Positions 20,391-63,280 of a stretch of DNA of 64,000 nucleotides are shown one piece after another. The DNA is taken from positions 4,956 to 68,955 of the IMG/VR virus record IMGVR_UViG_3300002503_000002. The stretch is one strand, 5' to 3'. Made by a program: the position numbers and the translations under genes. The stretch comes from a virus. The first letter of the stretch is position 1, and each line of letters begins with the position of its first letter. The notes below the pieces were generated by a model. That model saw only the letters and a program-made list of their open reading frames with translations. It was not told where the DNA came from and did no database searches.

Positions 20391-20391
20391 A

Positions 20392-20463: not shown

Positions 20464-20476
20464 GTATTATTTTTGA

Positions 20477-20547: not shown

Positions 20548-20565
20548 TTATATTATCATCATTAG

Positions 20566-40741: not shown

Positions 40742-41158
40742 TCACTTCTTAGATAAATATCTGCTCATCGTTGTCAGGTTCATTAAATCCTGATGCATTT
40801 CTACAATCTCATTTAATCTGTTGAGACAATGTTTGCATATACGTTTACAGTCCTGTGAAGATAATCTATGGTAATCCACACCTATAATATCTATCCTCTT
40901 TTTATGACGATAACATAGGGATACCCACTTATAGTCCTCACCAACTCTTAATTGTCCTTTAATTTGTTGTTGTTTCCAATGTTTACCTTTCTCAGAACTT
41001 ATATTAATTATACTATAGACAGTATGAGTCCTATTTCTAAATGGTTTGATAAATAAATGGAAACTATATCTATTACGTCCATAACGCCAATAAGGTTCAT
41101 CATAAATTATCTTACTCATTTTAATTATCATTTGAATTCTCTCCCGCAGTTCCAACAC
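40742..41158 (-). CDS. Zn-binding hypothetical protein, probable paralog of 47627-47932
   Basis: H.V...SLC...ICKHCL. Confidence 0.5.
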   Translation of the reverse strand: MLELRERIQMIIKMSKIIYDEPYWRYGRNRYSFHLFIKPFRNRTHTVYSIINISSEKGKHWKQQQIKGQLRVGEDYKWVSLCYRHKKRIDIIGVDYHRLSSQDCKRICKHCLNRLNEIVEMHQDLMNLTTMSRYLSKK

Positions 41159-41574
41159 GTAATTTTAAATGCCATCGGGTGTTTCTTGTCATTCAAATGA
41201 CCAGCCTTTACCGCATACAAACGACCAAGAGGAACATATGTATAACAATCTGCCTTGTTTAATTGCACATCTGTTTTGGATTGGGCATCTTTGAAACATT
41301 TATCCGTACATTCGAAAGTTGATATACCATAGTTGGCCTCCAGATAATGATAAACACATAGCCATTCCCATGTAGAATGGATACGATGATAATTTCCTTT
41401 ATTTTGAGGACATTTCTTTTTCTTGTCTGATGTCCCATAACACCATAATCTGCTTTTCATCATTGTGAAACGACTATTCGATTCTTTGATACATGGAAAA
41501 TATTTGCTACCATATCCATGCATATGGCATTTTATCTTCTTTGGGTGTTCCCATCTTGTTGACATATTATTCAC
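41128..41574 (-). CDS. Cys/His-rich multi-Zn-finger protein
   Basis: More than 10 Cys/His in pairs; GGTGA SD. Confidence 0.55.
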   Translation of the reverse strand: MNNMSTRWEHPKKIKCHMHGYGSKYFPCIKESNSRFTMMKSRLWCYGTSDKKKKCPQNKGNYHRIHSTWEWLCVYHYLEANYGISTFECTDKCFKDAQSKTDVQLNKADCYTYVPLGRLYAVKAGHLNDKKHPMAFKITCWNCGREFK

Positions 41575-45481: not shown

Positions 45482-46146
45482 ACAGTTTCCTCCCCCTCTC
45501 TCTTTTTATCCACAACTCGTACTTCATTGATGATTCCCCCATTATGTATGTTGAAAGAGAATGTATAATCTAATTCTACTACACGGTCGAATAACATTCG
45601 TAACTTATCTGGTCGCTCAAATACAAAAGAAAATCCTTCCCATACTCTTTGGGAACCATCTACATTTTTGGCATATACAGACAATTGCTTAGATACCGTG
45701 CGTTTCAAAATTTCAAATGCTATTGTCTTAGGGCCATTGAACGAAAATCTCTTATTATCGATGTTTGTAAGAATGACAAAACTGACACGCTCACCCATCA
45801 TATCTATCTTTTCTATTTTGCCAATGTATATACCTGGTATAAGGTCACGTATTCTATATCGTTGTACTACGAATGGATTATCAATAAGAGCAGGACATAT
45901 GGGAACCGAGATATCATGTACAGTATCACTCATCGCAATAGGCATAGAACATGAACATATCTTCTTTTCTGCTGGATATACATATGGACATAATTCCGGT
46001 TCTTCAAAATTCTCCCATAAAATATCATCTCTGTCCTTTTCCTTTTTATGCGCCTGTTGTATATGTTTTCGCATGGCCTCTTCAGACCATTTTATTGAAT
46101 GACAACGAGAACATCTCCATTTTAAGATAGGAATTTTCTTGGTCAT
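45478..46146 (-). CDS. C2H2 Zn finger plus possible OB-like domain protein
   Basis: CSRC...MRKHIQQAH and a second Cys cluster. Confidence 0.6.
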   Translation of the reverse strand: MTKKIPILKWRCSRCHSIKWSEEAMRKHIQQAHKKEKDRDDILWENFEEPELCPYVYPAEKKICSCSMPIAMSDTVHDISVPICPALIDNPFVVQRYRIRDLIPGIYIGKIEKIDMMGERVSFVILTNIDNKRFSFNGPKTIAFEILKRTVSKQLSVYAKNVDGSQRVWEGFSFVFERPDKLRMLFDRVVELDYTFSFNIHNGGIINEVRVVDKKREGEETV

Positions 46147-46173
46147 TATAGTCCATTACTATACATTGGACCA

Positions 46174-46189
46174 TATTTATATACCTTTG
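46174..46189 (-). promoter_or_regulatory. Archaeal BRE-TATA promoter (CAAAGG-TATATAAA)
   Basis: TATA lies about 30 nt upstream of the ATG at 46146. Confidence 0.6.
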
Positions 46190-46197
46190 TATTTATT

Positions 46198-46395
46198 CTA
46201 ATAAACAACAAACCCTAAGAAACGTGCGAATTGGAGACAAGTATCACAATATTTGGCTATTTCTTTCGCTTCCTCGAAGGGACAAGAGCCATAATGATAA
46301 TGCGTTATTTGGTTTATTTTGTAATGTGTCAAGAAATTATAAGGGGATTCATCCTCGCTTGCCCCGCATATAAAACATATTCCATGAGGATTCAT
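46198..46395 (-). CDS. Zn-finger family A protein
   Basis: CFIC...H..H...C...YCDTC. Confidence 0.55.
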   Translation of the reverse strand: MNPHGICFICGASEDESPYNFLTHYKINQITHYHYGSCPFEEAKEIAKYCDTCLQFARFLGFVVY

Positions 46396-46694
46396 TTAAA
46401 CAACCACTTATAAAAATTATGACATTCTTCACATATGGCCATAACATTATATTTATATCCTATATTTTTTAAAAGCCAGCAACTAATTTCTATGTAATAC
46501 TTATTCTTATCGTAAGAAATTATACTATCGCGCTCTCTGTATACTGAAGATATTTTTTCTAATGGGTGGATATGATAATTATAATTAAGATAATGTCCTA
46601 CGATAAGATATTCGGCGGGATTTTCCTTACAATGATGACATACTTCATATTTCTCTCTTTTCAATCTCACCATACTCATCCTCACAAACAACAC
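46392..46694 (-). CDS. Zn-finger family A protein
   Basis: CHHCKENPA...C...ICEEC. Confidence 0.55.
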   Translation of the reverse strand: MLFVRMSMVRLKREKYEVCHHCKENPAEYLIVGHYLNYNYHIHPLEKISSVYRERDSIISYDKNKYYIEISCWLLKNIGYKYNVMAICEECHNFYKWLFK

Positions 46695-46992
46695 GACGAA
46701 TGCCAGCCATCCTTAATGCATAAAAACAGAACATACAAGGACGGGATAAACCACCCTTCATCCTAAATATATAAGCAGTAGAACCCTTTGCATTCCCATT
46801 GGCCCTATTCAGAGCGTCTATCTCACTATGGACCGTTCGTTCTTTGACAGCCAAACGGTTCTTTTCCTTATTCCAACCGACACTAATAGCCCGCCCCTTC
46901 TTTACAATGATACACCCTGTCCTCCTGCCCTTCTTGGGGTAGTCAGATAAAGAAGCAATGGACTGAGCCAATGATATCCAATCACGGGTCAT
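46645..46992 (-). CDS. Cytidine/dCMP deaminase-like protein
   Basis: GCIIV...GWN, HSE, PCMFC and AGIRRVV. Confidence 0.88.
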   Translation of the reverse strand: MTRDWISLAQSIASLSDYPKKGRRTGCIIVKKGRAISVGWNKEKNRLAVKERTVHSEIDALNRANGNAKGSTAYIFRMKGGLSRPCMFCFYALRMAGIRRVVCEDEYGEIEKREI

Positions 46993-47203
46993 TCATATAA
47001 CCATCCATATATCCGTATATTCATCCCTGATAAGATGATTTTTTCATGATTATTCCATACCATAATATTCAATACTATCCTCAACTTCTTCCCTTACTTG
47101 GTCAATATTCTTAAACATGGTTGTATTGAAACTTAATGTCATCAAGATATCTCTTTTCTCCATCGTCTCAGGGTCGATGACTTCCACGATAATATGATAG
47201 TCC

Positions 47204-47497
47204 TTATACTTTGTACTCATTTATTATACACCGTCCTGTAAACAACAATTCAAAAAATATTATCCTTATACACTCTTCACATAAGAAAGTCAATTGATGG
47301 TCAGGAGTAGCCATACAAGCACGGTTATACATATTCACTGATTTCAAAAATTCCCCAAACACAGATGCAATCAAATAATTACTAAATTGATATTTAATGT
47401 CATTCATATGAATTATCACATTTGTTATAGAATTACACTGAAAACATAATCCATTTCCTTCGGGATAAGCAGATATAAACGTTTTCATTTTAATCAC
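47204..47497 (-). CDS. Zn-finger family A protein
   Basis: CFQC....H...C...LCEEC. Confidence 0.55.
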   Translation of the reverse strand: MIKMKTFISAYPEGNGLCFQCNSITNVIIHMNDIKYQFSNYLIASVFGEFLKSVNMYNRACMATPDHQLTFLCEECIRIIFFELLFTGRCIINEYKV

Positions 47498-47626
47498 AAT
47501 GATATGATGTACAGAAACTTGATACTGGTTTCTTATGTTGATGCCAGTGTGTCCATTTAATTACCTTGCCGCCAGTACGTTCTATATTCTTTATTGCCGT
47601 GGCACATTCAATACAAACAATATCCA

Positions 47627-47932
47627 TCAAATCATCTCAATGAATATATAATTGTATAAATCAGCCATTCGTACAACTGTCCGTAAACATTTCTTGCACC
47701 AATGCGCCTTCGTTTCATCAAACATTTTACGATTGAATTCGTTTAAACTCCTGTTACGAGAATAAGCAGATATACGCGAGATATAATTATGAGAACCACA
47801 TAATGTTCCACTTTTACTATTGTTTACAAATTTATTATCTATTAATTCGTCATATGTTCTTTCTCGCAGAGAAAAAGAGATATGATACACTGGGGTTATA
47901 GTAGACGTTGCGATATAAATCATAAATTTCAT
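47627..47932 (-). CDS. Zn-binding protein, probable paralog of 40742-41158
   Basis: YH...TLCG...WCKKCL. Confidence 0.5.
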   Translation of the reverse strand: MKFMIYIATSTITPVYHISFSLRERTYDELIDNKFVNNSKSGTLCGSHNYISRISAYSRNRSLNEFNRKMFDETKAHWCKKCLRTVVRMADLYNYIFIEMI

Positions 47933-47938
47933 TTCATG

Positions 47939-48199
47939 TCACCCGTCACCTGTTATCAATTTAACACCATCTGCACCCAAAAAATGAATATAAAAACATA
48001 CTATCTGAAAACATTCATCACATAAACTAATTAAATGACTCTTTTGATGGGTACAAAATCTTTTTTCTACTACACAACGTCTTTGTAATTCATCGATACT
48101 TATTCTTACAATGTTTTGAGGAATCCAATTCTTTATGTCAGAAATATGGTACAAATTACTTTCCTTATTATTGCAATGTTTGCAAATAGGAGGAGACAT
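47939..48199 (-). CDS. Zn-finger family A protein
   Basis: CKHC....YH...C.H..LCDEC. Confidence 0.55.
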   Translation of the reverse strand: MSPPICKHCNNKESNLYHISDIKNWIPQNIVRISIDELQRRCVVEKRFCTHQKSHLISLCDECFQIVCFYIHFLGADGVKLITGDG

Positions 48200-49095
48200 T
48201 ATTTAAAACTCCTCTTCAATAACCATTCCTTGTAAAATTCAGGAGCCCCACCGATAACAGCACGTTCCATCTTAGGCCAGAAATAATCAAATAATTCTTG
48301 CATGATGGCTTCTTTCTCTTCCTTCAATATATCTTCTTTGATTTCTTTCAGGAGATTTCCAATATCCTTGGGGTCGTATTCTAATTCTCCACGTTCTTCT
48401 AAATGCTGTATGGCTTTTTTCCATCGTGCTTCTGTCCTATATGATAAGATAAGTTTTTGTAGGATATCCCCTTGTGTTGGATTCTTCTCGCGCCAATCCT
48501 TCTGTTGGACTTCTTTGAATCGTTCACTTACGAATTTCCCTATCGCTACCTTCTTCTCACTGGTAATCATAGTATAATTCTTGACCACCACGCCTTCTAA
48601 TTTGGTCCCCTCTAATACAGATTCCTGCTCCAAGAATGAAAGCAATTCATTGGGAGTATCTATCTTACCAATAAAGAGGATAGGGACACATTCCAAACCA
48701 ATACGGTCTGCCTCATTATATTTCTGGTCCGGTGTCATGTATTGTTCTAAACCCGTGGATATATCAAATATGATTAAATGGTCCCTTGGAACCCTACTAT
48801 ATTTCAATGTCCCATGTTCAGGAGTTTTCAGATATTCAGCACGATAGATATAACCCGGTTTGAACAAACCCTGTGCATATTTCTGTTTAATGACATTCAC
48901 GGCTTCTTGAAACATTTTGTCCGGGGCATCTAATATTATTTGTTTCCCCTTGGACCGTGCTTGTAATTCGTTATCTGTGACAGACCAACTGAATTGCGAT
49001 CCATCAATTTTTTCTTCTATTACAACATCACTCTTGAAAATATCCAATACCTGCTTATGACCCAATGCGAACACAGATGGGTAACTATATATCAT
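48199..49095 (-). CDS. ATP-dependent RNA ligase (Rnl2/Rnl5-like)
   Basis: Motif I EEKIDGSQ, AEY, FDI, VP.L, EGVVVKN and KFVSERFKE. Confidence 0.88.
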   Translation of the reverse strand: MIYSYPSVFALGHKQVLDIFKSDVVIEEKIDGSQFSWSVTDNELQARSKGKQIILDAPDKMFQEAVNVIKQKYAQGLFKPGYIYRAEYLKTPEHGTLKYSRVPRDHLIIFDISTGLEQYMTPDQKYNEADRIGLECVPILFIGKIDTPNELLSFLEQESVLEGTKLEGVVVKNYTMITSEKKVAIGKFVSERFKEVQQKDWREKNPTQGDILQKLILSYRTEARWKKAIQHLEERGELEYDPKDIGNLLKEIKEDILKEEKEAIMQELFDYFWPKMERAVIGGAPEFYKEWLLKRSFK

Positions 49096-49304
49096 GGCAA
49101 TCCCCCTTCTTCAAATTCCCGAATACGCCAAGCATCAATCTGTCCATAATCTTTTTTCATTTGTTTTTTATACAATCCACATTTTATACATTTAACATAG
49201 ATAATATCTCTAATACCTGTCTTAAACCCATATTGAGTAGATTTCAACTTTATTTCTATATTTTGCTCAGTTTTATATTGAGTCCATTTATGAAATAGAC
49301 ACAT
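49092..49304 (-). CDS. Small Zn-ribbon protein
   Basis: CLFHKW...CIKCG. Confidence 0.55.
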   Translation of the reverse strand: MCLFHKWTQYKTEQNIEIKLKSTQYGFKTGIRDIIYVKCIKCGLYKKQMKKDYGQIDAWRIREFEEGGLP

Positions 49305-49625
49305 TTAGACACCTTCATTAATTAGATATGTTCTTCCGATATGTTTTTTTATTTCTTCAATACTTTGAGCAGGATTAGTTCCGCTTTCTCTGGAATAAAA
49401 TAAAAGCACATAAAATAATATTTTTTGTAAATCTTCCTCATTTTCTATCTTTACTGTGTTATCATTTTTATCGTCTCTGAGTTGTGAATGTAGTTTATAT
49501 CCTTGATTATGTTTGTCTCCATTACAATAATAACAATAATATGGTCCAGAATCATAATCTTTTGAATCTTCTATATCCTCGGCCCTTAGATGAAACCAAA
49601 TAGGAAATTTAATTTTGGTATTCAC
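49305..49625 (-). CDS. Zn-finger family B protein
   Basis: WFH...YYCYYC...H...EDLQKILF. Confidence 0.55.
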   Translation of the reverse strand: MNTKIKFPIWFHLRAEDIEDSKDYDSGPYYCYYCNGDKHNQGYKLHSQLRDDKNDNTVKIENEEDLQKILFYVLLFYSRESGTNPAQSIEEIKKHIGRTYLINEGV

Positions 49626-49957
49626 TTAAAAACCTCTGATAATATATATTCAGTACTCTGACAATGTGCCACTCGTTCATGCATTGATTTATAATCATTG
49701 ATAATGAACATCTGAAATAGAATATTCATAAGGTCTTCATATATAGTAATTTTATATGTTTTAATTATATCAGATGGGTGTGAAAGATGTTCTTTATAAA
49801 ATTTCATTGGCTGTCCCTTATCATTGGTAAATATATCTCCATAATTACATATATAACAATAAAATATCCTAGGACTACCACCATTATATGTTATACCATC
49901 CTTCATGACCTCATGAAAGACAACTACCCTGTTTAGTTCATTGACCATGATAACCAT
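49622..49957 (-). CDS. Zn-finger family B protein
   Basis: VFH...FYCYIC...H...EDLMNILF. Confidence 0.55.
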   Translation of the reverse strand: MVIMVNELNRVVVFHEVMKDGITYNGGSPRIFYCYICNYGDIFTNDKGQPMKFYKEHLSHPSDIIKTYKITIYEDLMNILFQMFIINDYKSMHERVAHCQSTEYILSEVFK

Positions 49958-50396
49958 TTATCCTTTTTCTGTACGATGAATTCACAAAAGACTCTAATTT
50001 CTTCCCTGCTTTGTTATCTTTCCGGCCAACCCATGATAATGTATAATCAATATGTGCTAAAAGAGCAAGTGCTGTTTTCCTGCGTTCTCTCAATGCAGGA
50101 CTATTTGTTTTATAAGTGCCCTTTATCTGATTAACAATGGTCTGTGAATCCCCGATAATTTCATATTCCTTATCATTGAAATAAAGTTGGTGTTGTACAT
50201 ATTCCAGTGCCTTAATCAAGGCATCATATTCTGCCTGATTGGAAGAATGAGCCTCAGAGAGAAATATATGCTCTTGTTCTAAGTTATTTTCTTCAATGAT
50301 ATAACATCCATATGTCTTGCGTTTTTCTATATCCTTTATATGATTGTTTATACAAGCACCATCGAACCATATCTTCACTTTCTTTTCCTTATCCAT
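49938..50396 (-). CDS. rnhA: Ribonuclease HI (archaeal/actinobacterial type)
   Basis: FDGAC, SNQAEY.AL, GDSQ..VNQIKG.YK and WV.R..N..A. Confidence 0.9.
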   Translation of the reverse strand: MDKEKKVKIWFDGACINNHIKDIEKRKTYGCYIIEENNLEQEHIFLSEAHSSNQAEYDALIKALEYVQHQLYFNDKEYEIIGDSQTIVNQIKGTYKTNSPALRERRKTALALLAHIDYTLSWVGRKDNKAGKKLESFVNSSYRKRINGYHGQ

Positions 50397-50614
50397 ATTA
50401 CATTACCATCCAACCATATTTTCTGAATTTTATATAATGGTATTCTACCTCTATCTGTCGTAAAGTAACGACGTTCAACATCTCTGATAGTATTACCTTC
50501 TATATTCTTAAAGCCGATGATTAATGTTCTATCAGAACAATCTATTTTCACTCTGGCAAAATCTATGTTCAATCCCCATTTCAGGAAATTGAGGACTTCC
50601 CGAGCAGTTTTCAT
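50375..50614 (-). CDS. DUF504 / MJ1316 RNA-end recognition domain protein
   Basis: AREVLN.LKW...RIPLYKIQKI..DG.VIW.R. Confidence 0.75.
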   Translation of the reverse strand: MKTAREVLNFLKWGLNIDFARVKIDCSDRTLIIGFKNIEGNTIRDVERRYFTTDRGRIPLYKIQKIWLDGNVIWIRKRK

Positions 50615-50985
50615 AAAACCACCTTTAAATCTTGAATAATATCTTCTATTGCTTCCATTTTAGTATCTGATAATTGCAGACAGATATTATAAGGATATGG
50701 ATAGTGCATAAATCTATGTTTTAAACATGTATTACATAATTTACATTGGTGATATAATTTAGTAAAATTATCTGCTCGATAATACGCATCCTCGTCATTA
50801 CTAAATTGATAGTCATTATTTGTATGTAAAACACCTACTTTTATATAAGAATATGCTGTATGTTTCTTGCAATCATCACAAACGAATTTATTATTAATAG
50901 AGCCGAGCCATATTTCTTTATATTTATTGTCATCTCCATAATCAATAGAAGTCTTATTATACAATACACCCTTATATTTAAACAT
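50611..50985 (-). CDS. Zn-finger family A protein (KY..LYN subtype)
   Basis: WL.S...VCDDC...LCNTCL; tandem paralog of the next gene. Confidence 0.6.
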   Translation of the reverse strand: MFKYKGVLYNKTSIDYGDDNKYKEIWLGSINNKFVCDDCKKHTAYSYIKVGVLHTNNDYQFSNDEDAYYRADNFTKLYHQCKLCNTCLKHRFMHYPYPYNICLQLSDTKMEAIEDIIQDLKVVL

Positions 50986-50994
50986 CGAAACACC

Positions 50995-51372
50995 TTAGAA
51001 TGTCAATTTTATCATATTCATTAAATCTATTATATTGGTGATGCCATCTATTGATAATGGTATTTCATACGTAATATTATATAATTTAAAGTCTTCATCA
51101 TCAAAAGCAAAACATAGACAATCTTTACATATGGAATATGTTTTAGGCGCTCTATTGTTTACCATCCAAAGTAAATTATTATCCTTTCTTACTTTTTTTA
51201 CTAAGAAGTGATAGGTATGTGAATTTTTGGATTTACATTCTCCACATACATAGTTTTTATTCTTTGAACGTAACCAGAATTGTGTACTTTCTTCATATTC
51301 ATCTATATAATTATCATCGGTCTTTTTATCCATAATCAATGTATTGTATAATATGTTATTATATTTCAACAT
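50995..51372 (-). CDS. Zn-finger family A protein (KY..LYN subtype)
   Basis: WL.S...VCGEC...ICKDCL. Confidence 0.6.
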   Translation of the reverse strand: MLKYNNILYNTLIMDKKTDDNYIDEYEESTQFWLRSKNKNYVCGECKSKNSHTYHFLVKKVRKDNNLLWMVNNRAPKTYSICKDCLCFAFDDEDFKLYNITYEIPLSIDGITNIIDLMNMIKLTF

Positions 51373-51374
51373 GA

Positions 51375-51563
51375 TTAAAACTCCTCTCGAAATTCTGTAT
51401 CATCCACTGTGAATTCCGCTCCTACGATACAAGATTCAGAACATAGATGTGCCCATTTACCTTTTATCATTTTAGCAAATTGCACGGTGTTTTCATGACA
51501 GACAGGACATAATTCACCTTTATCTACGAAACAACCACATTCTAATAACAACTCTTCTGTCAT
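51375..51563 (-). CDS. TRASH-like Zn-binding protein
   Basis: CPVC.........LCSESC. Confidence 0.5.
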   Translation of the reverse strand: MTEELLLECGCFVDKGELCPVCHENTVQFAKMIKGKWAHLCSESCIVGAEFTVDDTEFREEF

Positions 51564-51877
51564 GATTTGTCTCCTCTAAAGATAGTATCACGCAGAACAA
51601 TTAAATCATCCAATTCGCCTTTGCTTTCTATAACCATTAACGCAGAGAGACAAGAATAATCATCACATAAAAACAAACTATTGTTCATCATCTTATCAAT
51701 TTCTTCTCTTGTTAATATGTCTTGGTTTTTAGGATAAATCTGGCAATTAGAAACATGATATAGATGCCAATGCGTCTTATAATTTATTTTATCAATCCTC
51801 GGCTCCCGTTTAATCTTATGATACTGTGCACCGTTCTTCTGACAGAAGGAACATAGGATATTATCTATGTAGACCAT
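51560..51877 (-). CDS. Zn-finger family A protein (CxxxxC subtype)
   Basis: CSFC...YH...H...C...FLCDDYSCLS. Confidence 0.6.
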   Translation of the reverse strand: MVYIDNILCSFCQKNGAQYHKIKREPRIDKINYKTHWHLYHVSNCQIYPKNQDILTREEIDKMMNNSLFLCDDYSCLSALMVIESKGELDDLIVLRDTIFRGDKS

Positions 51878-52177
51878 TTATAACATCTCCTTCAATCTCA
51901 AACTATATTGTGGTTCATCTAATATCAACACAGAGGAAAGACATACTTCATTATTGCATACAAAAATAGATATATCTTCTATTTTATTTTTTTTTAATAA
52001 TAACTCTACTGTTTCTTCGTTATTATCATTATTCTTCCATGTACGATTATTAAAAATACAAAATTTAAAATCATGCCACAATAAAGTATAATGTATAGAG
52101 TCGTTCCAGCGCCTAGTAAATCTATGATAGGATGGTTTATTTATACCACATACCATACACTTTATATCTATCATCAA
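51878..52177 (-). CDS. Zn-finger family A protein (CxxxxC subtype)
   Basis: CMVC...YH...H...C...FVCNNEVCLS. Confidence 0.6.
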   Translation of the reverse strand: MMIDIKCMVCGINKPSYHRFTRRWNDSIHYTLLWHDFKFCIFNNRTWKNNDNNEETVELLLKKNKIEDISIFVCNNEVCLSSVLILDEPQYSLRLKEML

Positions 52178-52180
52178 ACA

Positions 52181-52984
52181 TCAAACACCGTCTGTTATTC
52201 TCTCTACAAACGAGATATCGAAGACATTCTCATGTAATACGTCAAACTGATGTATTTTCGTTGTAAGGTCTGTCTTGGCATTAGACCATATTCGGTTACA
52301 TAATAAAGCATATGTATGATAAAGAGACAAAGAATCTGTAGAAATATTATCAAATAGTTTATCAGGTAGATTCTTCTTCAATATCTCCTCATGTTTCTTA
52401 TTATATATCACTTTGGTTAATACGCTCAAACTTGGAATCAGATTATAATCAGCGCCAAGTAGAGTTTGGGCCACTATTACCAATTTATCTACAGAAGTCT
52501 CCAAGGATTTCATATGCTTAGATACATAGAGGGACAAATCCTTGTAATAACGTTGGGGTAGAACGACATAAATCCCTCCAATGGTCATAAATGTCCTCAT
52601 TCCGAACTTAAGGGAACCATCTATGGAATTATACATTGTAAGACCATGACTGACTTTATCACCACCGACTTCTCCAACATCATCATTCATTTTAACCATG
52701 ACATACATTTGAGTATCATTGTCCTTGGAATAAAAGGTGTCTAATATCGTGCCACCTATCTTATCACTTAGACGTTCAATGACCTCATGGGCTTTTTCAT
52801 TGGGAAATAATTTGTACCGGGTGCTTTGGACAGTAACTAATTTTCCATGCTTAAAAATGCCCATGTAGCGCGTGTCAGAGCCATTGTAGTTGAGAGTCCC
52901 TTCTTCATAACCCAAAGATTCCCACGGGGAGAATCGTCGTATGAATGTTGCTGTTCCAATATCATCGGTCATTCTATCTTCCAC
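52181..52984 (-). CDS. DUF932-like protein
   Basis: S.RYKL.PN, GD.V..GL...NSIDGS. Confidence 0.7.
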   Translation of the reverse strand: MEDRMTDDIGTATFIRRFSPWESLGYEEGTLNYNGSDTRYMGIFKHGKLVTVQSTRYKLFPNEKAHEVIERLSDKIGGTILDTFYSKDNDTQMYVMVKMNDDVGEVGGDKVSHGLTMYNSIDGSLKFGMRTFMTIGGIYVVLPQRYYKDLSLYVSKHMKSLETSVDKLVIVAQTLLGADYNLIPSLSVLTKVIYNKKHEEILKKNLPDKLFDNISTDSLSLYHTYALLCNRIWSNAKTDLTTKIHQFDVLHENVFDISFVERITDGV

Positions 52985-53205
52985 TCCTTTATTCCTTGTT
53001 TACTAAAAACCCTAGTTATAGTATCAATATAGGATTGGATTTCTTCATCGGCTCTTTTCGTTACTAGTGCATCTTGCATTTTATTGAGGGCTTCAACCTG
53101 CCAATCCTCGGGACTATCTTCTGGATCGAGATATTCTAAACCTAATCTTATTACTTCGGCTACAAAATCTGCTTGCTCATCCGTCAATTCTAACTTGATT
53201 TCCAT
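52969..53205 (-). CDS. Small acidic hypothetical protein
   Basis: GGAG SD before MEIKLEL. Confidence 0.55.
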   Translation of the reverse strand: MEIKLELTDEQADFVAEVIRLGLEYLDPEDSPEDWQVEALNKMQDALVTKRADEEIQSYIDTITRVFSKQGIKEWKIE

Positions 53206-53247
53206 ATTATATCTCCAATGTACATAATGATACATCAATTAGTATTG

Positions 53248-53285
53248 ATTAATATAATAATCTATAAAAAAATAAAAAGAGGAAG
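53248..53285 (-). terminator. T-rich archaeal-type terminator followed by a TATA-like element
   Basis: CTCTTTTTATTTTTTT right after the stop, then TTATATATT. Confidence 0.5.
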
Positions 53286-53289
53286 TCCA

Positions 53290-53739
53290 TTACTGGATTT
53301 CCTCAATCTCGGACAATTCCAGCATATTTGGCCAGAATGACCTTACAGCGATTGTCTGCATACCGACCTTGACGAGATATGTTGTCTCGGTATTCAAATA
53401 CTCAAGGTTCAGGGAAACAGCCAACGACTTCTGTTTTTCCGTTTCTTGATACTCCGCCCGAAACGAGGATAGCAGGTCCATTGCCGGAATTGGCGTATTC
53501 TGGACAATCGCCTGATTCGAGATATTCCTCGTTTCAGGTGTCGTCTTAGATGTCAAGTCGGAAAAGACCTGTTCCGTTGTTTTCGGTGCTTTCACACGAA
53601 CCCCAGTGTGATTGTGCCGATGGCCACCCAAAGCGAAACGAGCATTCTTCGTTGTTTTATATTTCGCTTCCGATGTCCAGCCGCATTCACACTTCGCCGC
53701 ATATTTCTTTACTTCTGGTGCGTATATCACGTTTCTCAT
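53290..53739 (-). CDS. C2H2-type Zn-finger protein, higher GC than neighbours
   Basis: CECGW.......ALGGHRHNH; AGGAAGG SD. Confidence 0.65.
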   Translation of the reverse strand: MRNVIYAPEVKKYAAKCECGWTSEAKYKTTKNARFALGGHRHNHTGVRVKAPKTTEQVFSDLTSKTTPETRNISNQAIVQNTPIPAMDLLSSFRAEYQETEKQKSLAVSLNLEYLNTETTYLVKVGMQTIAVRSFWPNMLELSEIEEIQ

Positions 53740-53754
53740 GTCGTTCCTTCCTTT

Positions 53755-54036
53755 TTACAGATTAAATTCCTTCACTAATCTATTGTATACATCGATATTT
53801 ACTGTGAAAAATATTTCACCATAAACATTATCTTGATAATAATTTATACTATTAATATGTAATAATATTAAGATATTAGTCAACACTGGAGTTGAAATAT
53901 TCTTAATACAATATCCATGTTTTTGAGTGATATCTTTATCTCTCTCATCTTCTTTTTTACATGGACACCATAGACAATGATTTATAAAAGAATTGGTAAA
54001 CCAAAGATGATGAATCAAGTCATTTTCCATTTCCAT
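53755..54036 (-). CDS. Zn-finger family B protein (HH..W..HCxxCP)
   Basis: HHLW...HCLWCPC...HGYC; start refined using the GGAG SD. Confidence 0.55.
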   Translation of the reverse strand: MEMENDLIHHLWFTNSFINHCLWCPCKKEDERDKDITQKHGYCIKNISTPVLTNILILLHINSINYYQDNVYGEIFFTVNIDVYNRLVKEFNL

Positions 54037-55363
54037 TTCCATTCTCCTTATATTCGATACGGATGATATCTCCAAATGGCGGATCATCTTTGGCCTGAAA
54101 GTTGCCAGCATAAATCCATAATGTCTTGAAATCCCCGATATCCTCTTCGTTTGGAAATGTACCCTGTCCATCCGTGAAATATAGAAAAGCCTTACAATTT
54201 GGTGCGTTTTCCAAGGCCCATTCAAACGCAGGACAGAAATCAGTCCCACCATATCCCTTTCTTTTTGACAGGGTTTCTAATATATCTGCGGTACTCGTCG
54301 TTGTGATTGTATGCTTAACATCAGCATCGCTTGAGATAATCGTAAAACGTACCCGATTGAAGGCCCGAGCAATGGCAAATAACTCATTGAGGAAATCAAT
54401 GTAAAGAGTATCATCCACCGAACCTGAGACATCTATCGACACGATTATCTCTAATTCCTCACGTAGGATAGAAGGTAAATAAGCCCCAACTCCAGCCGAT
54501 TTCTTGGAAGGCTTAGACCATGTGAAATCCTGTGGAACGGATTGCTGTATGAAACGATACAGATATCTGCGCCAATCCACTTTCTCAGGAGCTAACTTAA
54601 TATCCACTAATTTTTCCAAAGAACCAGATAATTTACCTTGCCTATGTGCTAATTCTGCCGCATTCAATACGGCCTCATTCCATTCCTCTTTCAATTGTTT
54701 CAATTCATTTTCAAATTCCTTGACTTCCTTACCAATCTCTGAATCCTTCGAACCGCTAAATCTATCCTTATCGCTCTTAAAATCCCCTTCGCCCATAGCC
54801 TCGTTCTTTTCTTGTTCTGTTTCACCATCGGCATTTGTGAATCCACCACACCCACCGTATATTTCCAATAACTTTTGATGACTTAACAAATCCCTATAAA
54901 TCTCTTCACTTGACATTCCCTTATATTTCACAAGTTCTTTTATTCTTGATGTTATCGATTTATCACTGACATTGAATCCATTCTCCAACAGAATATCATT
55001 AATCACCATATCCGTGGCAATATTCCAGCATTTTCTCTTTACTGTCTCAGGCTTTGCTTTGAATCTCTTATCGTGAGAAAAGGCCAGATGCATAGTTTCA
55101 TGCGCTACAACACATTCCAATTCATCATCTTTCAATGAGGCAACGAAATCATCATCATAGAACAAATGACCTTGATAATCTACACACATTGTCGGCTGAA
55201 TGCCTAATTTATTTGCTTCAGCCGTTATAGATTTTGGCATTTTTGTTAGAGACAGGCGTAAAGATAGGTATCCAAAGAACGGTTGTTTTTCCAGTAATTT
55301 CGCTCTCGCCTTCCTAACTCTTTCTTCCGGTGTGAACTTTGTAGATAATATAGACATATCCAT
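54020..55363 (-). CDS. DUF2201 metallopeptidase plus vWA domain protein
   Basis: HETMH, WNIATD..IN, MIDAS DVSGS, GGTDF and YFTDG. Confidence 0.9.
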   Translation of the reverse strand: MDMSILSTKFTPEERVRKARAKLLEKQPFFGYLSLRLSLTKMPKSITAEANKLGIQPTMCVDYQGHLFYDDDFVASLKDDELECVVAHETMHLAFSHDKRFKAKPETVKRKCWNIATDMVINDILLENGFNVSDKSITSRIKELVKYKGMSSEEIYRDLLSHQKLLEIYGGCGGFTNADGETEQEKNEAMGEGDFKSDKDRFSGSKDSEIGKEVKEFENELKQLKEEWNEAVLNAAELAHRQGKLSGSLEKLVDIKLAPEKVDWRRYLYRFIQQSVPQDFTWSKPSKKSAGVGAYLPSILREELEIIVSIDVSGSVDDTLYIDFLNELFAIARAFNRVRFTIISSDADVKHTITTTSTADILETLSKRKGYGGTDFCPAFEWALENAPNCKAFLYFTDGQGTFPNEEDIGDFKTLWIYAGNFQAKDDPPFGDIIRIEYKENGNGNGK

Positions 55364-55375
55364 TCTCTCCTTTAT

Positions 55376-55418
55376 TATAAAAAATATAGATTGGATGAAT
55401 AGGTTAACTACTCATCCA
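55376..55418 (-). terminator. Hairpin plus T-run between the MoxR and vWA genes
   Basis: TGGATGAGTAG-TTAAC-CTATTCATCCA followed by ATCTATATTTTTT. Confidence 0.55.
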
Positions 55419-55420
55419 TT

Positions 55421-56512
55421 CTAGATATATTTCGCATATTTCAGACCTATTTCTCTATCTACCTTGACGATATCCCACATCTGTTCCCTAAATTCTGCTC
55501 CACCAAATACCTTCAAGAGATTCAACAATAGCATACCGTATTCAGGTTCAATATCCTTGCTGAATTTCATGACTTTCTTCAACTTATCCACTTTTTTATT
55601 ATACCATTCAGACATTGCTGTAATCACAGCATACTTCTCATCGGGCTTTAGTTTGTTGAAGTCTTGGTCGCCGTTGACAATATCATCAATCTTATATTTG
55701 TTCAACGACTTGCAAAACTGCTCAAACATATGTCCAACGGCTTTCCCTACAACAGCCTTTGCAAACCATACGTCTTTCTGCCCCAAAATCAAATGAGACA
55801 GTTTTTCCCAAGAACGTGGTGTCGCAAACGCCATATCAGATTTGTTCTTCGGGTCGAATTGATTCAGTTTAGTAGGTTGCCACCCCAAAAACCCAACAAT
55901 CCTGAAATCAATACTATTCGGGATTGCAAAGTTCTGTATCCATTCTTCCGTATGCTCTGGTGTCTCGGGAGCCGTCAATAGATAATGAGCATATCTATTC
56001 CCTAATGTGGCTTCCATATCAAAGACATTAACCCTATCCTCTACCCTATTCCCTGCGGCTATGACCAGCCAGCCATCCGGTAGAATGGCATTTGCTATAT
56101 GCCTTCCATGCAAAAGCGGATAGAAAGACGAACGGACTAAATCAGGGGCTCTGTTAAATTCATCCAAGAAATAGATTCCCTGACCAACTCTTGGGAAATC
56201 ATCAGGGACGAGCCATTTCGTATAACCCTCTACCGGGAATGGAATCCCCTTGATATCCGAAGGGTCGAATTGTGCCGCATTGACAGTTCTGACCACAAAT
56301 TTCTTCGTATGTCCAGCGAAATCCCTTGGGTCTGTCGAATATTCCCAGTTATTTTCTTTCGCAATCGTCCTTCCAGCCGCCTTTACTGCATCCGTTTTCC
56401 CAATACCCGGAGCCCCCCAAATAAACATGGGGACGCTCTTTGCACGAATCTCGTAATGGCGTCTTATTGCTTCCAATAGTTTTTCATGGTTTACTTCTAA
56501 CACTTTACTCAC
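55421..56512 (-). CDS. MoxR-like AAA+ ATPase
   Basis: WGAPGIGKT, DIKGIP, FLDEFNRA, AAGNR, LGNR and TPRSWE. Confidence 0.92.
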   Translation of the reverse strand: MSKVLEVNHEKLLEAIRRHYEIRAKSVPMFIWGAPGIGKTDAVKAAGRTIAKENNWEYSTDPRDFAGHTKKFVVRTVNAAQFDPSDIKGIPFPVEGYTKWLVPDDFPRVGQGIYFLDEFNRAPDLVRSSFYPLLHGRHIANAILPDGWLVIAAGNRVEDRVNVFDMEATLGNRYAHYLLTAPETPEHTEEWIQNFAIPNSIDFRIVGFLGWQPTKLNQFDPKNKSDMAFATPRSWEKLSHLILGQKDVWFAKAVVGKAVGHMFEQFCKSLNKYKIDDIVNGDQDFNKLKPDEKYAVITAMSEWYNKKVDKLKKVMKFSKDIEPEYGMLLLNLLKVFGGAEFREQMWDIVKVDREIGLKYAKYI

Positions 56513-57317
56513 CTTTGTTCGTTTGTTCCTGTTTCGCTTTTGCCAGTATTTCCAATTGTTCTATCTGTTTCTTTGTTTCTTCCTTGAATTTATCAAAGGC
56601 ATACGGGATGAACTCCCTGATAATCTGCTCGTTCAATGATAATATCTTTTCTTTGGCATCATGATATAGAGTATAATAATCTCTTGGTTTATTTATATTC
56701 CTATGTTCATCCAAGAGATGCAAAAATTCACTAATATTGTTTTTATTATAATAAAACATAAAACTAATAATATCCTGTTCTATTATCTTAGATAGTTTAT
56801 CCATTTCACTATGAATACTCTTAGATAAGAGTTTTGCCTTGTAAAATTGCTCATCATTTTCCTTTAATAATGGATTGTAGTCATCAGACATAGAATATAA
56901 ATTTCTATCTAAATGAGATACCAAATATGTATTTAACTTATAGAGACTCTCTTCAACAGATTTTTCAAAATCAATCAAATCTTTTGTTTTAAATATTATT
57001 CGAATAGATTTTCTTCTTCGATAGCTATCGTTTTCATATGGTAAGTTATTGTCTTTACATGTTTTAACAATCGCTTCACGCAATACATCAATTTGTCGTT
57101 TTTCACCGCCGCTATCTTCATCATTTATGAATGTATCCTTGAATACGAATAAACGTAATACATTCTCAGCCGTTTCCATTAAATAAATATTTTTATGACC
57201 ATCATTACAAGTACCAAATGCTGCATAATATTTCTCTACTAACATGGCCTCTACATCTGCCTTACATGACTGGCATTTACTCATTATTCGCTTATATGGC
57301 TTTCTTCCCTTTGGCAT
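56505..57317 (-). CDS. Hypothetical protein with N-terminal Zn ribbon
   Basis: PKGRK, CQSC...CNDGH. Confidence 0.55.
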   Translation of the reverse strand: MPKGRKPYKRIMSKCQSCKADVEAMLVEKYYAAFGTCNDGHKNIYLMETAENVLRLFVFKDTFINDEDSGGEKRQIDVLREAIVKTCKDNNLPYENDSYRRRKSIRIIFKTKDLIDFEKSVEESLYKLNTYLVSHLDRNLYSMSDDYNPLLKENDEQFYKAKLLSKSIHSEMDKLSKIIEQDIISFMFYYNKNNISEFLHLLDEHRNINKPRDYYTLYHDAKEKILSLNEQIIREFIPYAFDKFKEETKKQIEQLEILAKAKQEQTNKGE

Positions 57318-57716
57318 TTATTGAACACCCCACTTTCTCTCAAATCTGGGATTCTTTACCCTCTTGGAATGTGGTTCCCATAATCCTAATGACATTGTTA
57401 TCTCCTTTTTTCTATTGGAATGAAGAGGACCAAAATGTCTTTCTATTTTAGAGAATGCCTCTCGCTCTTGGCCCCATAAATAATAAATAATAATAGGTTG
57501 ACAATCTTTATAACGTCCATTCCATCTTGAAGCCCGTCCAGCAAAACGTACACGCCGTATCATACCATTGATAGACTTGTTCTTCCTTATATCCGCGAAT
57601 TGCATAGAGAAGTTAGTATTTTGCAACTCATCCCTGATTTCATGTACGAACAATGGACCCTTTTCAGATAAAAGGGTTAACATGAATTTACTTTTTGGGG
57701 TCATTCGTCCTACCAT
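57318..57716 (-). CDS. Putative winged-helix DNA-binding protein
   Basis: LLSEKGPL...EI..EL...IYYL; basic. Confidence 0.55.
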   Translation of the reverse strand: MVGRMTPKSKFMLTLLSEKGPLFVHEIRDELQNTNFSMQFADIRKNKSINGMIRRVRFAGRASRWNGRYKDCQPIIIYYLWGQEREAFSKIERHFGPLHSNRKKEITMSLGLWEPHSKRVKNPRFERKWGVQ

Positions 57717-57720
57717 ATAA

Positions 57721-57912
57721 TCACATCGCCATATGTTTTTCCATATTGTTACAGAATAGACCGCAAGAACGACATAAGAACATAGATTCAGATTCTACAA
57801 TATCTATGAAATCCTCATAGTCAATATCCCTGATATCAGTCTGAGATAAAGAAACAGGCGTTACATCCTCGCTGACACAATGACATTTAATATATAGTGG
57901 GATATCAGTCAT
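57721..57912 (-). CDS. Small Zn-binding protein
   Basis: CHC...LCRSC. Confidence 0.45.
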   Translation of the reverse strand: MTDIPLYIKCHCVSEDVTPVSLSQTDIRDIDYEDFIDIVESESMFLCRSCGLFCNNMEKHMAM

Positions 57913-58240
57913 CTTGATTCTCCTTCTTCGTTTCTTCTTCTTCTAACATAGTCTTGAATTTCTCGACCGCATCATCAATACCCTCAGCCTTAATCCTCTG
58001 CGGCTCAGGTTCTACTTTGACATAGAAACCTTTGTTATCCTCCAATTCCTTATAATCTAAGATTTCAAAATATTCAATAGCCTCCGTAGAGAATATTGTA
58101 TCGGGCTCATCACATTCGGGATTCAGACATAGATATATGTCGCCATAATATTCGTGCTTCAATGTCATATCTTCCTTACATTGCAGGCATTTCATTTTAA
58201 TTTCATACCTCCAGACGTATAATTGGCAATGAACCAACAT
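57905..58240 (-). CDS. Zn-ribbon acidic protein; real start probably MKCLQC
   Basis: CLQC...CLNPEC; GGAGG SD. Confidence 0.55.
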   Translation of the reverse strand: MLVHCQLYVWRYEIKMKCLQCKEDMTLKHEYYGDIYLCLNPECDEPDTIFSTEAIEYFEILDYKELEDNKGFYVKVEPEPQRIKAEGIDDAVEKFKTMLEEEETKKENQDD

Positions 58241-58464
58241 TCATCACAGAATACATTTTCTTCTTCATTCACATCTAATTCTTCCACTATTTTTTTTGTA
58301 TGTTTATATTTATAGAAAGTACAACGAGCATTAGTTAAAATATCGCAAGGTTGGTAGTCATTTAGATTTATTAGCGCAGTTTCATCTATCTTAATCAAAG
58401 CATTAAACGACAATAAAAAGTGTTTCGTTGCCAATGTATTATTACAATGGCTACAAAAAACCAT
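58192..58464 (-). CDS. Zn-finger family A protein
   Basis: MVFCSHC...A..H...PC...C...FCDEC. Confidence 0.6.
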   Translation of the reverse strand: MVFCSHCNNTLATKHFLLSFNALIKIDETALINLNDYQPCDILTNARCTFYKYKHTKKIVEELDVNEEENVFCDECWFIANYTSGGMKLK

Positions 58465-58465
58465 C

Positions 58466-58846
58466 TTATCCCTCTAAGAATACTTTCATTATGCAGTTTG
58501 CATCTCCGCAAGTAATGACACCAAAGTCCCTCGTCAATTTAGCTAATTCCATTTCATCATCCCGATGTATTTCGTTGGTACATACATAACAATGTGCTGT
58601 GAATTGATGCCATTTATCAGGGATACCATAATCATGATAATGGACTCCTTTCATATCTTTTGGGATATCACCACAAGCAGTAAATTTAGGATGCCATGAT
58701 TTTGGAAGACCCTTACCACAACTACAACCACATTGCTTATTGTGGATATAACACATAATAGGACATTGTGTATCTGTCAGATTTTTTATCAGTCCCATCA
58801 TTACCACCAATAACGTATAAAAGCAGGAAAGACACATTCTTCGCAA
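58466..58846 (-). CDS. Cys/His-rich hypothetical protein
   Basis: Multiple C/H pairs; ends CGDANC. Confidence 0.5.
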   Translation of the reverse strand: MRRMCLSCFYTLLVVMMGLIKNLTDTQCPIMCYIHNKQCGCSCGKGLPKSWHPKFTACGDIPKDMKGVHYHDYGIPDKWHQFTAHCYVCTNEIHRDDEMELAKLTRDFGVITCGDANCIMKVFLEG

Positions 58847-59094
58847 TATACATGTCCTAATGCTGTAAGTCCTAAATCTTTCATAGTATTCATACTGTCA
58901 TAATATCTGCTTATCTCACATAAAAAATATGTCTGATTACTATTGTCCATGAATCTCTTGCCTTCTCTTATATTACATGGCCTATATTGATTTTTGCTCA
59001 ACTCCTTATCTTTAATGTCTCTTAATAGAATATCCAATGACCATGGAGTATGCCATTCTGCCAATGCCTTTCCGCAGTTATCACAGAGAACCAT
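58801..59094 (-). CDS. Zn-finger family A protein
   Basis: MVLCDNC...A..H...PC...C...YCEEC. Confidence 0.6.
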   Translation of the reverse strand: MVLCDNCGKALAEWHTPWSLDILLRDIKDKELSKNQYRPCNIREGKRFMDNSNQTYFLCEISRYYDSMNTMKDLGLTALGHVYCEECVFPAFIRYWW

Positions 59095-59437
59095 TCTTGA
59101 AAATCCTCTTTTGATTCAAACAGAACATTTGTGTCATCGCCTTGGAAAAGGCGATATGTTTGCCAATATTCTCGTCCCATTTGTCATCTGGATGAAGTTT
59201 TGATATTCCATTAGCCCTATCAAAACACCATTCATCTTTCAAATTCTTATGTCCATATTTTAGGATACACTTTACCCATTTATGAGAGTTTACAACGAAT
59301 GTAACACTCACAAGTTGTAAATCAAGACAGAAATCTGGTACAATTCCAATGGATTTCTTACCCCAATTCATTTTTCGTTCAATAACATCGCCACTCAATA
59401 CTTGTTTTTGTATCGTATTTGCGTTTGCTGTTGCCAT
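59081..59437 (-). CDS. Conserved viral protein with G.S..HP.D..D..IG..IA..KA motif
   Basis: Resembles gp49/66-like small phage proteins. Confidence 0.55.
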   Translation of the reverse strand: MATANANTIQKQVLSGDVIERKMNWGKKSIGIVPDFCLDLQLVSVTFVVNSHKWVKCILKYGHKNLKDEWCFDRANGISKLHPDDKWDENIGKHIAFSKAMTQMFCLNQKRIFKNGSL

Positions 59438-59646
59438 TAAATATCACGCCTTTTATAATTGTTGATATAACAATACATACGTCGTAATTCATGATTATCA
59501 TATATCATGTCGAAATCCTCTTGGGTTATCTCATAACAACCAATATGAAATTTATCTGTAAAACGGGGTTCAGTATTATAACATGGACAAACTATGCAAT
59601 GCCAATTTACATCGATATCCAGAAAGAACCAATGATGGTTTGTCAT
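59437..59646 (-). CDS. Zn-finger family B protein
   Basis: HHWF...HCIVCPC...HIGC. Confidence 0.55.
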   Translation of the reverse strand: MTNHHWFFLDIDVNWHCIVCPCYNTEPRFTDKFHIGCYEITQEDFDMIYDNHELRRMYCYINNYKRRDI

Positions 59647-59940
59647 ATTAAATCTTATCCAAACATGGGATACATCTATATTCCGTCCTCATACAATATT
59701 TTTCAATGTATATAGAACGGAATAATTCATCTATATGTTTGAATTGCCAGCATATCCGGCAACGTATCCGTGATTCAAATGTATACTTAGTCATCTCTAT
59801 CATTCTCGTCCACATCTTGGAATCTATGAGCCATTCTACATATATGACTATTCTCCCCGTTACATATCATTTCAGGTCCATAAGAGAAAGAGGGTTTCCG
59901 GTGATTTAATAATCCACAACCACAGACACACATTGTCATT

Positions 59941-61482: not shown

Positions 61483-61487
61483 TTATT

Positions 61488-61778: not shown

Positions 61779-61879
61779 TCTCTAAGAATATGAAGGGCGC
61801 ACCAAAAGTAACCCCGATAGTCAACGTGGCAGAATGGACAATGCCCCCTAAATGTTCCGCATCGCTTACATTTATGCAT

Positions 61880-62723: not shown

Positions 62724-62996
62724 TTATTTCTTAGTCTCCTTTTCATCCTTTTTCAATTGATTCCAAAACGCCCAAGAACCAAGCCACGATATAACAATAA
62801 TATAATTAACCCACCAGATTTGAGGGAATACCCATAACAACAATGGTATGGCGAATATATTCATGACAATCAAAATATACATTGTACCGAACAACTGCCA
62901 ACTGAATCCCAATATCAGGGCCAATATGAAAGCGTCTAATAATTCAAATGCCGTATGCCACATCGTTAATTTAACGTATCTCTTTGTGTATCTCAT
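62724..62996 (-). CDS. Membrane protein
   Basis: Three hydrophobic helices. Confidence 0.5.
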   Translation of the reverse strand: MRYTKRYVKLTMWHTAFELLDAFILALILGFSWQLFGTMYILIVMNIFAIPLLLWVFPQIWWVNYIIVISWLGSWAFWNQLKKDEKETKK

Positions 62997-63280
62997 AACA
63001 AATCTCCCTTAATCAATAAATCCCAACATTCATAACATAGTCCATTAGTTTCCTCGTACATTTTCAATACGGCCCTTCCACATCGTTCACAAATCCACTT
63101 TGGACCACAGGCTTTTGTGAATGTAGCCATATCAAAATTAGGATTATCGGATTTCAAATATTCCCCAAGTTCATTGATTAAATCAACGGTGAGACCCATA
63201 TCCCCGCAGGAATAGCAACCTTCCGTGTGTTTGCTGAAAATACGTGCAATCGTCTCATAATATTTGCGTGTGATTGTCAT
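62993..63280 (-). CDS. Conserved viral protein with C-terminal Zn finger
   Basis: TRKYYE.IA...DNPNFD...F..AC; CERC..CYEC. Confidence 0.6.
   Translation of the reverse strand: MTITRKYYETIARIFSKHTEGCYSCGDMGLTVDLINELGEYLKSDNPNFDMATFTKACGPKWICERCGRAVLKMYEETNGLCYECWDLLIKGDLL

Follow-up and report, generated by a model that had tools for sequence, protein, structure and literature searches.

The stretch analysed here (hereafter, the window) comprises 64,000 nucleotides, bases 4956–68955 of the 68,955-base linear virus record IMGVR_UViG_3300002503_000002, for which CheckV estimates a completeness of 73%, and its source is an uncultured tailed virus. Between positions 46198 and 59094 of the window, all on the minus strand and within a block of early, replication-type genes, lie ten small open reading frames (ORFs, named below after their first coordinates), where a first-pass annotation made from the sequence alone had placed them. 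They encode proteins of 65 to 125 amino acids, each with a CxxC motif (a knuckle) near the N-terminus and a closing knuckle that is CxxC in eight of the ten and Cx4C in 51560 and 51878; the two knuckles lie 39–80 residues apart and hydrophobic residues follow the second. This frame, which had been described by eye, is thus borne out in all ten ORFs. The ten are real genes, because the minus-strand ORFs tile tightly, Shine-Dalgarno-like motifs precede many of them and paralogues keep their Cys and His at corresponding positions. By a pattern-based search, such motifs lie 5' of 59 of 100 minus-strand ORFs and of eight of the ten (all except 46198 and 47204); a GAGG-type ribosome-binding site stands upstream of 58192.

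An all-versus-all BLASTP comparison of 126 non-overlapping ORFs of at least 40 amino acids, chosen by a simple greedy rule, yields four significant links among the ten, namely 58192/58801, 50611/50995, 47204/47939 and 51560/51878 (sets A, B, C and D, respectively), and these are four of the five strongest links in the entire comparison. Composition-adjusted pairwise BLASTP assigns them expectation values (E) of 2e-11, 1e-7, 5e-9 and 6e-8, in the same order. Sets A, B and D had been pointed out previously as neighbouring pairs and are true paralogues; set C, the members of which flank two other small cysteine-containing genes, is a fourth pair absent from the first-pass annotation. The four two-member sets arose by local duplication. 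A further tandem pair of paralogues, 49305/49622 (49305–49957; E of 1e-4 in the all-versus-all comparison), lies outside the earlier list, and each of its proteins has one CxxC followed by two His, in a C2H2-like manner.

Beyond the four pairs, BLASTP connects no two of the ten at E below 0.048. Hidden Markov models (HMMs) of the sets, searched against 645 six-frame ORFs of the record, retrieve their own members alone, the next matches having E of at least 0.05, and hhalign comparisons between the set profiles cover 6–29 columns around a knuckle, with probabilities of 0.1–17%. No paralogue of 46198 is found at E < 0.01 by either all-versus-all BLASTP or the set HMMs, and neither approach detects similarity of 58466 to the ten. 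The centre of 46392, and not its knuckles, matches 41128 (31% identity over 59 amino acids; pairwise E of 6e-5, all-versus-all E of 0.002), and 58192 matches 62993, the closing motif of which it resembles (38% over 53 amino acids; pairwise E of 8e-4, all-versus-all E of 0.022, not significant alone); because of these weak links, the family drawn by eye is not cleanly bounded. Similarity therefore points to four pairs and the singletons 46198 and 46392, not to one demonstrated family. The claim that all ten are paralogous is not borne out by these searches, in which profile alignment finds nothing significant across pairs beyond generic CxxC motifs, and the idea of an expansion by duplication holds for the four two-member sets but not for the ten as a single expansion (Table 1).

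Table 1. Small knuckle-protein genes and other annotated features of the window (lengths in amino acids, aa)
Feature	Coordinates	Strand	Remarks
Set A, member 1	58192..58464	-	90 aa; knuckles Cys4/7 and Cys73/76
Set A, member 2	58801..59094	-	97 aa; identical protein on 8 contigs
Set B, member 1	50611..50985	-	124 aa; first knuckle from residue 36; closing CxxCxxC
Set B, member 2	50995..51372	-	125 aa
Set C, member 1	47204..47497	-	97 aa from GTG
Set C, member 2	47939..48199	-	86 aa; the one confident structure model
Set D, member 1	51560..51877	-	105 aa; closing Cx4C
Set D, member 2	51878..52177	-	99 aa from TTG
Singleton	46198..46395	-	65 aa; CxxC at residues 7 and 50
Singleton	46392..46694	-	100 aa; 93-aa form starting at 46673 in the protein collection
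Possible relative of set A	62993..63280	-	95 aa; knuckles at residues 22 and 82, central Cys
Wide-spaced knuckle protein outside the earlier list	58466..58846	-	126 aa, 12 Cys; between the two set A genes
Protein weakly related to the centre of 46392	41128..41574	-	148 aa, 10 Cys
Tail tube protein	6526-7551	+	PF18906
Tape-measure-like protein	8318-10324	+	
Two Laminin_G_3 fibre-like proteins	within 10321-17016	+	adjacent
Family B DNA polymerase	17572-19863	-	
dCMP deaminase	46645-46992	-	
RNA ligase	48199-49095	-	PF09414
RNase H	49938-50396	-	
DUF2201 vWA/metallopeptidase	54020-55363	-	
MoxR-like ATPase	55421-56512	-	

The central segment between the knuckles had been taken for a hypervariable insert displayed on a constant scaffold. 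Identity within the sets, counted separately for the centre and for the surroundings of the two knuckles with the cysteines included, is 11/50 in the centre against 7/17 and 7/15 around the knuckles in set A, 3/20 against 5/17 and 7/19 in set B, 7/36 against 4/15 and 8/18 in set C, and 10/42 against 6/17 and 6/21 in set D, or 15–24% in the centres versus 27–47% near the knuckles. The centres do look unrelated between sets, where they do not align, but within pairs they are alignable and retain Cys and His residues of ligand type: His15, Cys40 and Cys48 of 58192 are conserved in 58801, His18, Cys49 and His55 are conserved in set C, and His20 and His38 in set D, the last two within Tyr19-His20 and Trp37-His38 of 51560, which recur in 51878. 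In sets A, C and D these residues may together bind metal at a second site. As just the knuckles align between sets, a variable insert on a constant scaffold is there indistinguishable from unrelated proteins.

No variation of these proteins was seen among populations. Eight of the ten have an exact match in a collection of 15 billion proteins, on 8–13 contigs each (12 for 46198), and the remaining two, 47204 and 51878, differ from the forms in the collection in the chosen start codon alone. For 47204 the 97-amino-acid form is absent and a 94-amino-acid form (P0014), used by other gene callers, is present; for 51878 the TTG form is absent, and translation probably begins at the ATG that directly follows. 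The cluster mates of the ten differ solely by truncated or altered ends. No substitution was found over 45400–59500 in contigs from four further sequencing runs, with the limit that contigs can hide rare variants, and one of these runs by itself spans 2,908 and 3,511 bases without a single difference. With pair centres that align and proteins that are identical across contigs and runs, the hypervariable display scaffold is not upheld. In three runs (X4, X5 and X7), single contigs match the window up to 46416 and 47996 and continue beyond these points with an unlike sequence that is the same in each run. Both places fall inside zinc-knuckle genes, 46416 in 46392 and 47996 in 47939, and the breaks could reflect a variant genome arrangement or the contig of another organism. 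Other joints and loose ends in the aligned contigs have sides of just 20–21 letters or occur in single contigs.

Cysteine knuckles are not a peculiarity of the ten. Across the 126 ORFs, at least one CxxC is present in 45, compared with a mean of 10.7 and a maximum of 21 in 1000 within-protein shuffles, and at least two are present in 16 (shuffles: mean 1.3, maximum 7); the total is 63 motifs (shuffles: mean 12.2, maximum 23). The motif is thus far above chance, but as a property of the whole genome, not one confined to the ten. The ten are distinguished by the distance between their knuckles: among proteins of up to 160 amino acids, knuckles about 39 or more residues apart occur solely in the ten, 58466 and 62993, whereas the other two-knuckle proteins of this size are classical ribbons with a spacing of 17–34 residues. 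The AT-richness remarked upon earlier is also real, with a mean guanine-plus-cytosine (GC) content of 29.9% in the ten, 35.9% in 70 other small minus-strand ORFs and 37.3% in 20 large ones (Mann-Whitney p of 5.5e-4 against the small and 2.4e-4 against the large ORFs). In the block 17000–64000, cysteine makes up 3.1% of the residues of small minus-strand ORFs and 0.67% of those of ORFs longer than 150 amino acids, and many distinct knuckle architectures are found in the minus-strand block, for example in 30092, 34353, 61252, 62299, 51375, 57721 and 57905.

For the fold, AlphaFold2 was run on 47939 and 58192 with the alignment of the ten sequences as input. The model of 47939 has a mean predicted local distance difference test score (pLDDT) of 82.6 and a predicted template modelling score of 0.72, and consists of a knuckle at residues 6–9, a strand at 15–18 ending in His18, helices at 19–29 and 35–42, a strand at 56–59, a knuckle at 60–63 capping a helix at 61–74, and a last helix at 76–83. 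Such an order of elements would be expected of a treble-clef-like clamp in which zinc holds together the ends of a helical insert. Foldseek finds no significant neighbour of this model in the PDB (best E of 0.59, the zinc domain of a thymidine kinase) or in BFVD (best E of 0.42), so that the predicted fold is without a clear match among solved structures. The treble-clef likeness suggested in the first-pass annotation fits the model of 47939, but the two families it named, McsA and B-box, score far below threshold. The ten-sequence profile matches the McsA chain 8wtb_B (protein-arginine kinase activator) among PDB sequences at E of 1.3 and 13 bits, and the best B-box match (PF00643) is 12.1 bits with E of 0.24, from 47204 alone of the ten, against a gathering score of 24.1 bits. 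In B-box and McsA fingers the knuckles are roughly 10–25 residues apart, and the context differs as well, with neither a UVR domain nor an McsB partner here; Pfam scans of 114 window proteins contained no UVR or McsB family, in a survey that included no search aimed at them. A predicted complex of 47939 with 47204, run without controls, scored 0.00 and is informative neither way.

Searches for relatives of the ten led back to the virus itself. Searched exhaustively with hmmsearch, 1,835,955,588 representatives yielded the two set A proteins alone for the set A profile; when 58192, 46392 and the set C profile were looked up by word index in 5.8 billion clusters, nothing but the queries themselves came back, and pattern scans of IMG/VR with sets C and B found none. 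A scan with set D gave a single match (L007), inside a 476-amino-acid protein on a contig of a giant-virus metagenome-assembled genome, which we rejected as chance, the similarity being limited to 29 residues about one CxxC, a motif already required by the search pattern. Among 20 small proteins, Pfam gives nothing below E of 0.02 and nothing near a cut-off, and sequence searches of the PDB give nothing below E of 0.009. A match of 58192 to PHROG 38610 (E of 0.0019; annotated as of unknown function), the sole PHROG match among the ten, and scattered NCBIfam matches (E of 0.0015 or worse, none near cut-off) were treated as noise. In those parts of the literature consulted, no viral family of this kind is described, which is not proof that none is in print. 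As far as these searches reach, the sets appear to be private to this virus, and the ten are, apart from an unusual richness in cysteine, typical of the accessory genes specific to one viral lineage.

The reading that we prefer, with a probability of roughly 0.55, is that the ten comprise several virus-private sets of small zinc-stabilised proteins, multiplied by duplication in pairs, which likely serve as binding modules and not as enzymes. Judging from the motifs, zinc binding by the ten is most likely, and the motif together with the one confident model indicates that the two knuckles most probably share one zinc ion. The N-terminal CxxC and the C-terminal CxxC or Cx4C, the latter at the start of a helix, would then hold a single structural zinc that clamps both ends around a largely helical insert of 39–80 residues, in a treble-clef- or zinc-ribbon-like arrangement, while the insert His and Cys of sets A, C and D would supply the second metal site. 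Such proteins would act as small zinc-stabilised binders of protein or nucleic acid during infection; a binding role is the most likely one because no catalytic motif is complete. Host take-over or anti-defence, as proposed in the first-pass annotation, would be a candidate purpose of such binding.

Several points weigh against this reading. Zinc binding, the second metal site and the binder function are what we infer from motifs and a model, and of the two structure predictions one is usable, the model of 58192 having a pLDDT of 50.8. Moreover, some features extend across the sets and could mean common ancestry. In seven of the ten the first knuckle is followed by a His at +8 or +9, versus 3 of 44 other CxxC sites (Fisher p of 7e-5), and an acidic knuckle, C[DE][DET]C, at 7 of 19 sites versus 1 of 44 (p of 6e-4). 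When HMMs of the knuckles are built with one set left out, the left-out member ranks in the top six for 8 of 10 N-terminal knuckles (among 44–45 sites) and for 8 of 10 C-terminal ones (among 58–59 sites), which none of 20,000 random draws matched; the exceptions are set D (rank 31 of 45, and ranks 11 and 46 of 59) and the N-terminal knuckle of 46198 (rank 16). These tests are partly circular, because the ten had been picked by eye for just such features, and we give them limited weight on account of that selection, the non-independence of pair members and convergence, which can place acidic residues at the start of a helix and hydrophobic ones ahead of a knuckle.

On these features rests the most serious competitor, which we regard as possible but clearly less probable: that the ten, or with 58466 and 62993 twelve, belong to one fast-evolving family that has diverged beyond the reach of profile detection. 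In addition to the cross-set motifs and ranks, it is favoured by the common architecture with a knuckle spacing otherwise seen just in 58466 and 62993, by the clustering within 13 kb, by the low GC content common to all, and by a few weak bridges, namely the set C profile to 50995 (E of 0.056), 58192 to 62993, and set D to 41128/46392 (hhalign probability of 17%). However, nothing between the sets reaches significance (E of at least 0.048 by BLASTP and 0.05 by HMM, at most 17% by hhalign), set D closes with Cx4C and ranks poorly when left out, the motif tests are circular with the earlier selection, convergence can produce acidic and hydrophobic knuckle contexts, and the sets differ in length and in additional N- and C-terminal segments, such as both of those borne by 50611. 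A precedent does exist in the ZAD, the zinc-finger-associated domain of arthropod C2H2 proteins, including those of Drosophila (zf-AD, PF07776), a domain of the treble-clef class in which, according to a published account, the four zinc-binding Cys and few other residues are conserved and the most divergent members are less than 18% identical (PMC7913770). The example demonstrates that true relatives may have hardly anything in common beyond four Cys. By that account, the likeness extends to two distant CxxC pairs binding one zinc, with the second pair leading into a long helix, to conservation almost limited to the Cys, and to fast expansion in particular lineages. Unlike the ten, which are stand-alone viral proteins, ZADs are N-terminal dimerisation domains of large eukaryotic transcription factors, and all scores obtained here are below threshold: 50995 reaches 14.4 bits (E of 0.046) and 62993 11.1 bits against a zf-AD gathering score of 28 bits, and Foldseek matches the 47939 model only weakly to the ZAD of Pita (7pok_C; E of 2.1, TM-score of 0.31).

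A different origin, which appears unlikely to us, would make the ten degenerate His-Me (HNH) fingers, in which a large insertion separates the two strands and which are left over from free-standing homing-endonuclease-like genes or are inactive versions of them. In HNH and other His-Me fingers (PF01844, PF13391, PF21368, PF02945), too, two CxxC knuckles frame strands and a helix and a conserved His follows shortly after the first knuckle, and HNH is the commonest label among the weak structural neighbours. A structure search of the ESM Atlas with its own 47939 model gives HNH-type clusters in nine of the ten matches listed (TM-scores of 0.38–0.44), 17 of the 50 BFVD matches listed are HNH-named, and the HNH domains of IscB, Cap5, SciA, McrA, GVE2 and Gme are among the weak PDB matches. 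His18 is the last residue of the strand at 15–18 in the 47939 model, the place that the general base occupies in HNH domains, and 46392, with a His directly after its closing knuckle and an Asn at -5, keeps the order His ... Asn ... CxxC-His. Free-standing homing endonuclease genes, moreover, are typically low in GC and interspersed among genes for enzymes. Against all this, HMMs of PF01844, PF21368 (AI2M-like_HNH) and PF02945 (Endonuclease_7) have no match at E of 10 or less anywhere in the 68,955-base record, although they rang in 12, 10 and 8 of 14 control genomes, respectively, and none of the ten is matched to an HNH family by hmmscan at E of 1 or less. The Atlas model of 47939 has a pLDDT of 0.51, and 58192 gives HNH in just two of ten matches listed. 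In zinc-containing HNH domains the position that follows the second knuckle contributes a metal ligand, and a His or Asn stands there in just two of the ten (His in 46392, Asn in 50611). All structural scores lie in the noise, and weak HNH matches are to be expected from the base rate, because HNH is very common among small viral CxxC proteins.

Closest to the model by score among PDB structures is the C-terminal zinc ('lasso') domain of TK1-type thymidine kinases, which differs in being part of an enzyme; the score is in the noise range, the sequences are not similar (12–17% identity), and the insert of the ten is helical and longer. A comparison of another kind is offered by prokaryotic one-domain zinc-finger micro-proteins, mostly shorter than 70 amino acids and with closely spaced knuckles. 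Those of Haloferax volcanii resemble the ten in being small and stand-alone with pairs of knuckles, and are of the C(P)xCG type, with many per genome, most of which have no known function (PMC6562870); they are cellular proteins, compared here by description.

The genes that surround the ten (Table 1) bear on a further suggestion of the first-pass annotation, that the small proteins serve the neighbouring MoxR-like ATPase and vWA/metallopeptidase as substrate adaptors. We consider this very improbable. Proximity alone speaks for it, in that the ten flank both enzyme genes within 13 kb, whereas the vWA-peptidase is spread over 711 phage records and relatives of the ten were not found outside this virus. 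A search of IMG/VR with the MoxR-like ATPase led to one distant viral locus (L003, 26% identity), and a search of Joint Genome Institute metagenomes returned the contig of L003 again (L005) and a 2.6-kb fragment (L004); none of these MoxR-bearing loci carries a relative of the ten, and the 20 kb around MoxR in L003 hold three CxxC ORFs of up to 200 amino acids, none with two knuckles.

As to the virus itself, its family B DNA polymerase is nearest to those of haloarchaeal tailed viruses, yet at 25% identity, with cyanophages and other phages at 23–25%. The vWA-peptidase is closest to proteins of bacterial phages, and the named hosts of the phages that carry it include E. coli, Pseudomonas aeruginosa, Klebsiella and Campylobacter. 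An IMPDH/GMP-reductase gene, considered as a hint to the host, has one match of 32% identity in genome contigs and is uninformative. Near-identical DNA is present in the 20 runs listed, labelled soil, sediment or groundwater metagenome, three of which are possibly the source runs; no RNA run with DNA matching this stretch is among the runs listed, and megablast of 46000–59200 against GenBank phages did not find near-identical DNA.

Other features of the record are listed for completeness. The first 3.6 kb (bases 1–3600 of the record, upstream of the window) have a GC content of 42% versus 36% elsewhere and encode Ala/Gly/Thr-rich fibre-like proteins, and the two adjacent fibre-like proteins have their Laminin_G_3 region in common (31% identity over 216 amino acids, E of 5e-16). 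Four minus-strand tRNA genes (Gly-TCC, Ala-TGC, Phe-GAA and Asn-GTT) are clustered at 20317–20637. A 664-amino-acid protein at 37079–39073, with a KaiC/DnaB-like ATPase match below the Pfam cut-off and a LAGLIDADG_3 domain, is probably a replicative helicase with an intein, and a NADAR domain protein is encoded at 39466–39939. Between the zinc-knuckle genes, at 48199–50614, lies a possible cluster of RNA-repair type, the putative members of which are the RNA ligase, the RNase H and a 79-amino-acid protein at 50375–50614 with an MJ1316 RNA cyclic-end recognition domain (PF04457, E of 1.6e-7).

Small cysteine-knuckle proteins constitute a large and mostly unstudied part of the viral 'dark matter', and the present case illustrates how a zinc-finger 'family' recognised by eye fares under test, with just the pairs of paralogues surviving. 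Were the ten one family after all, they would show in compact form how a virus can expand a zinc-clamped scaffold, and would be candidates for new host-targeting binders. More speculatively, and in our view doubtful, all twelve proteins with widely spaced knuckles might descend from one zinc-clamped module that has diversified within the lineage of this virus as fast as the ZADs of insects into a repertoire of binders. If so, about a tenth of the genes would represent a virus-private expansion, their treble-clef-like fold, bearing a helical insert in which a second metal site is nested, would not have been seen before, and the virus would have kept the module in diverged pairs as specific binders for host take-over or counter-defence.

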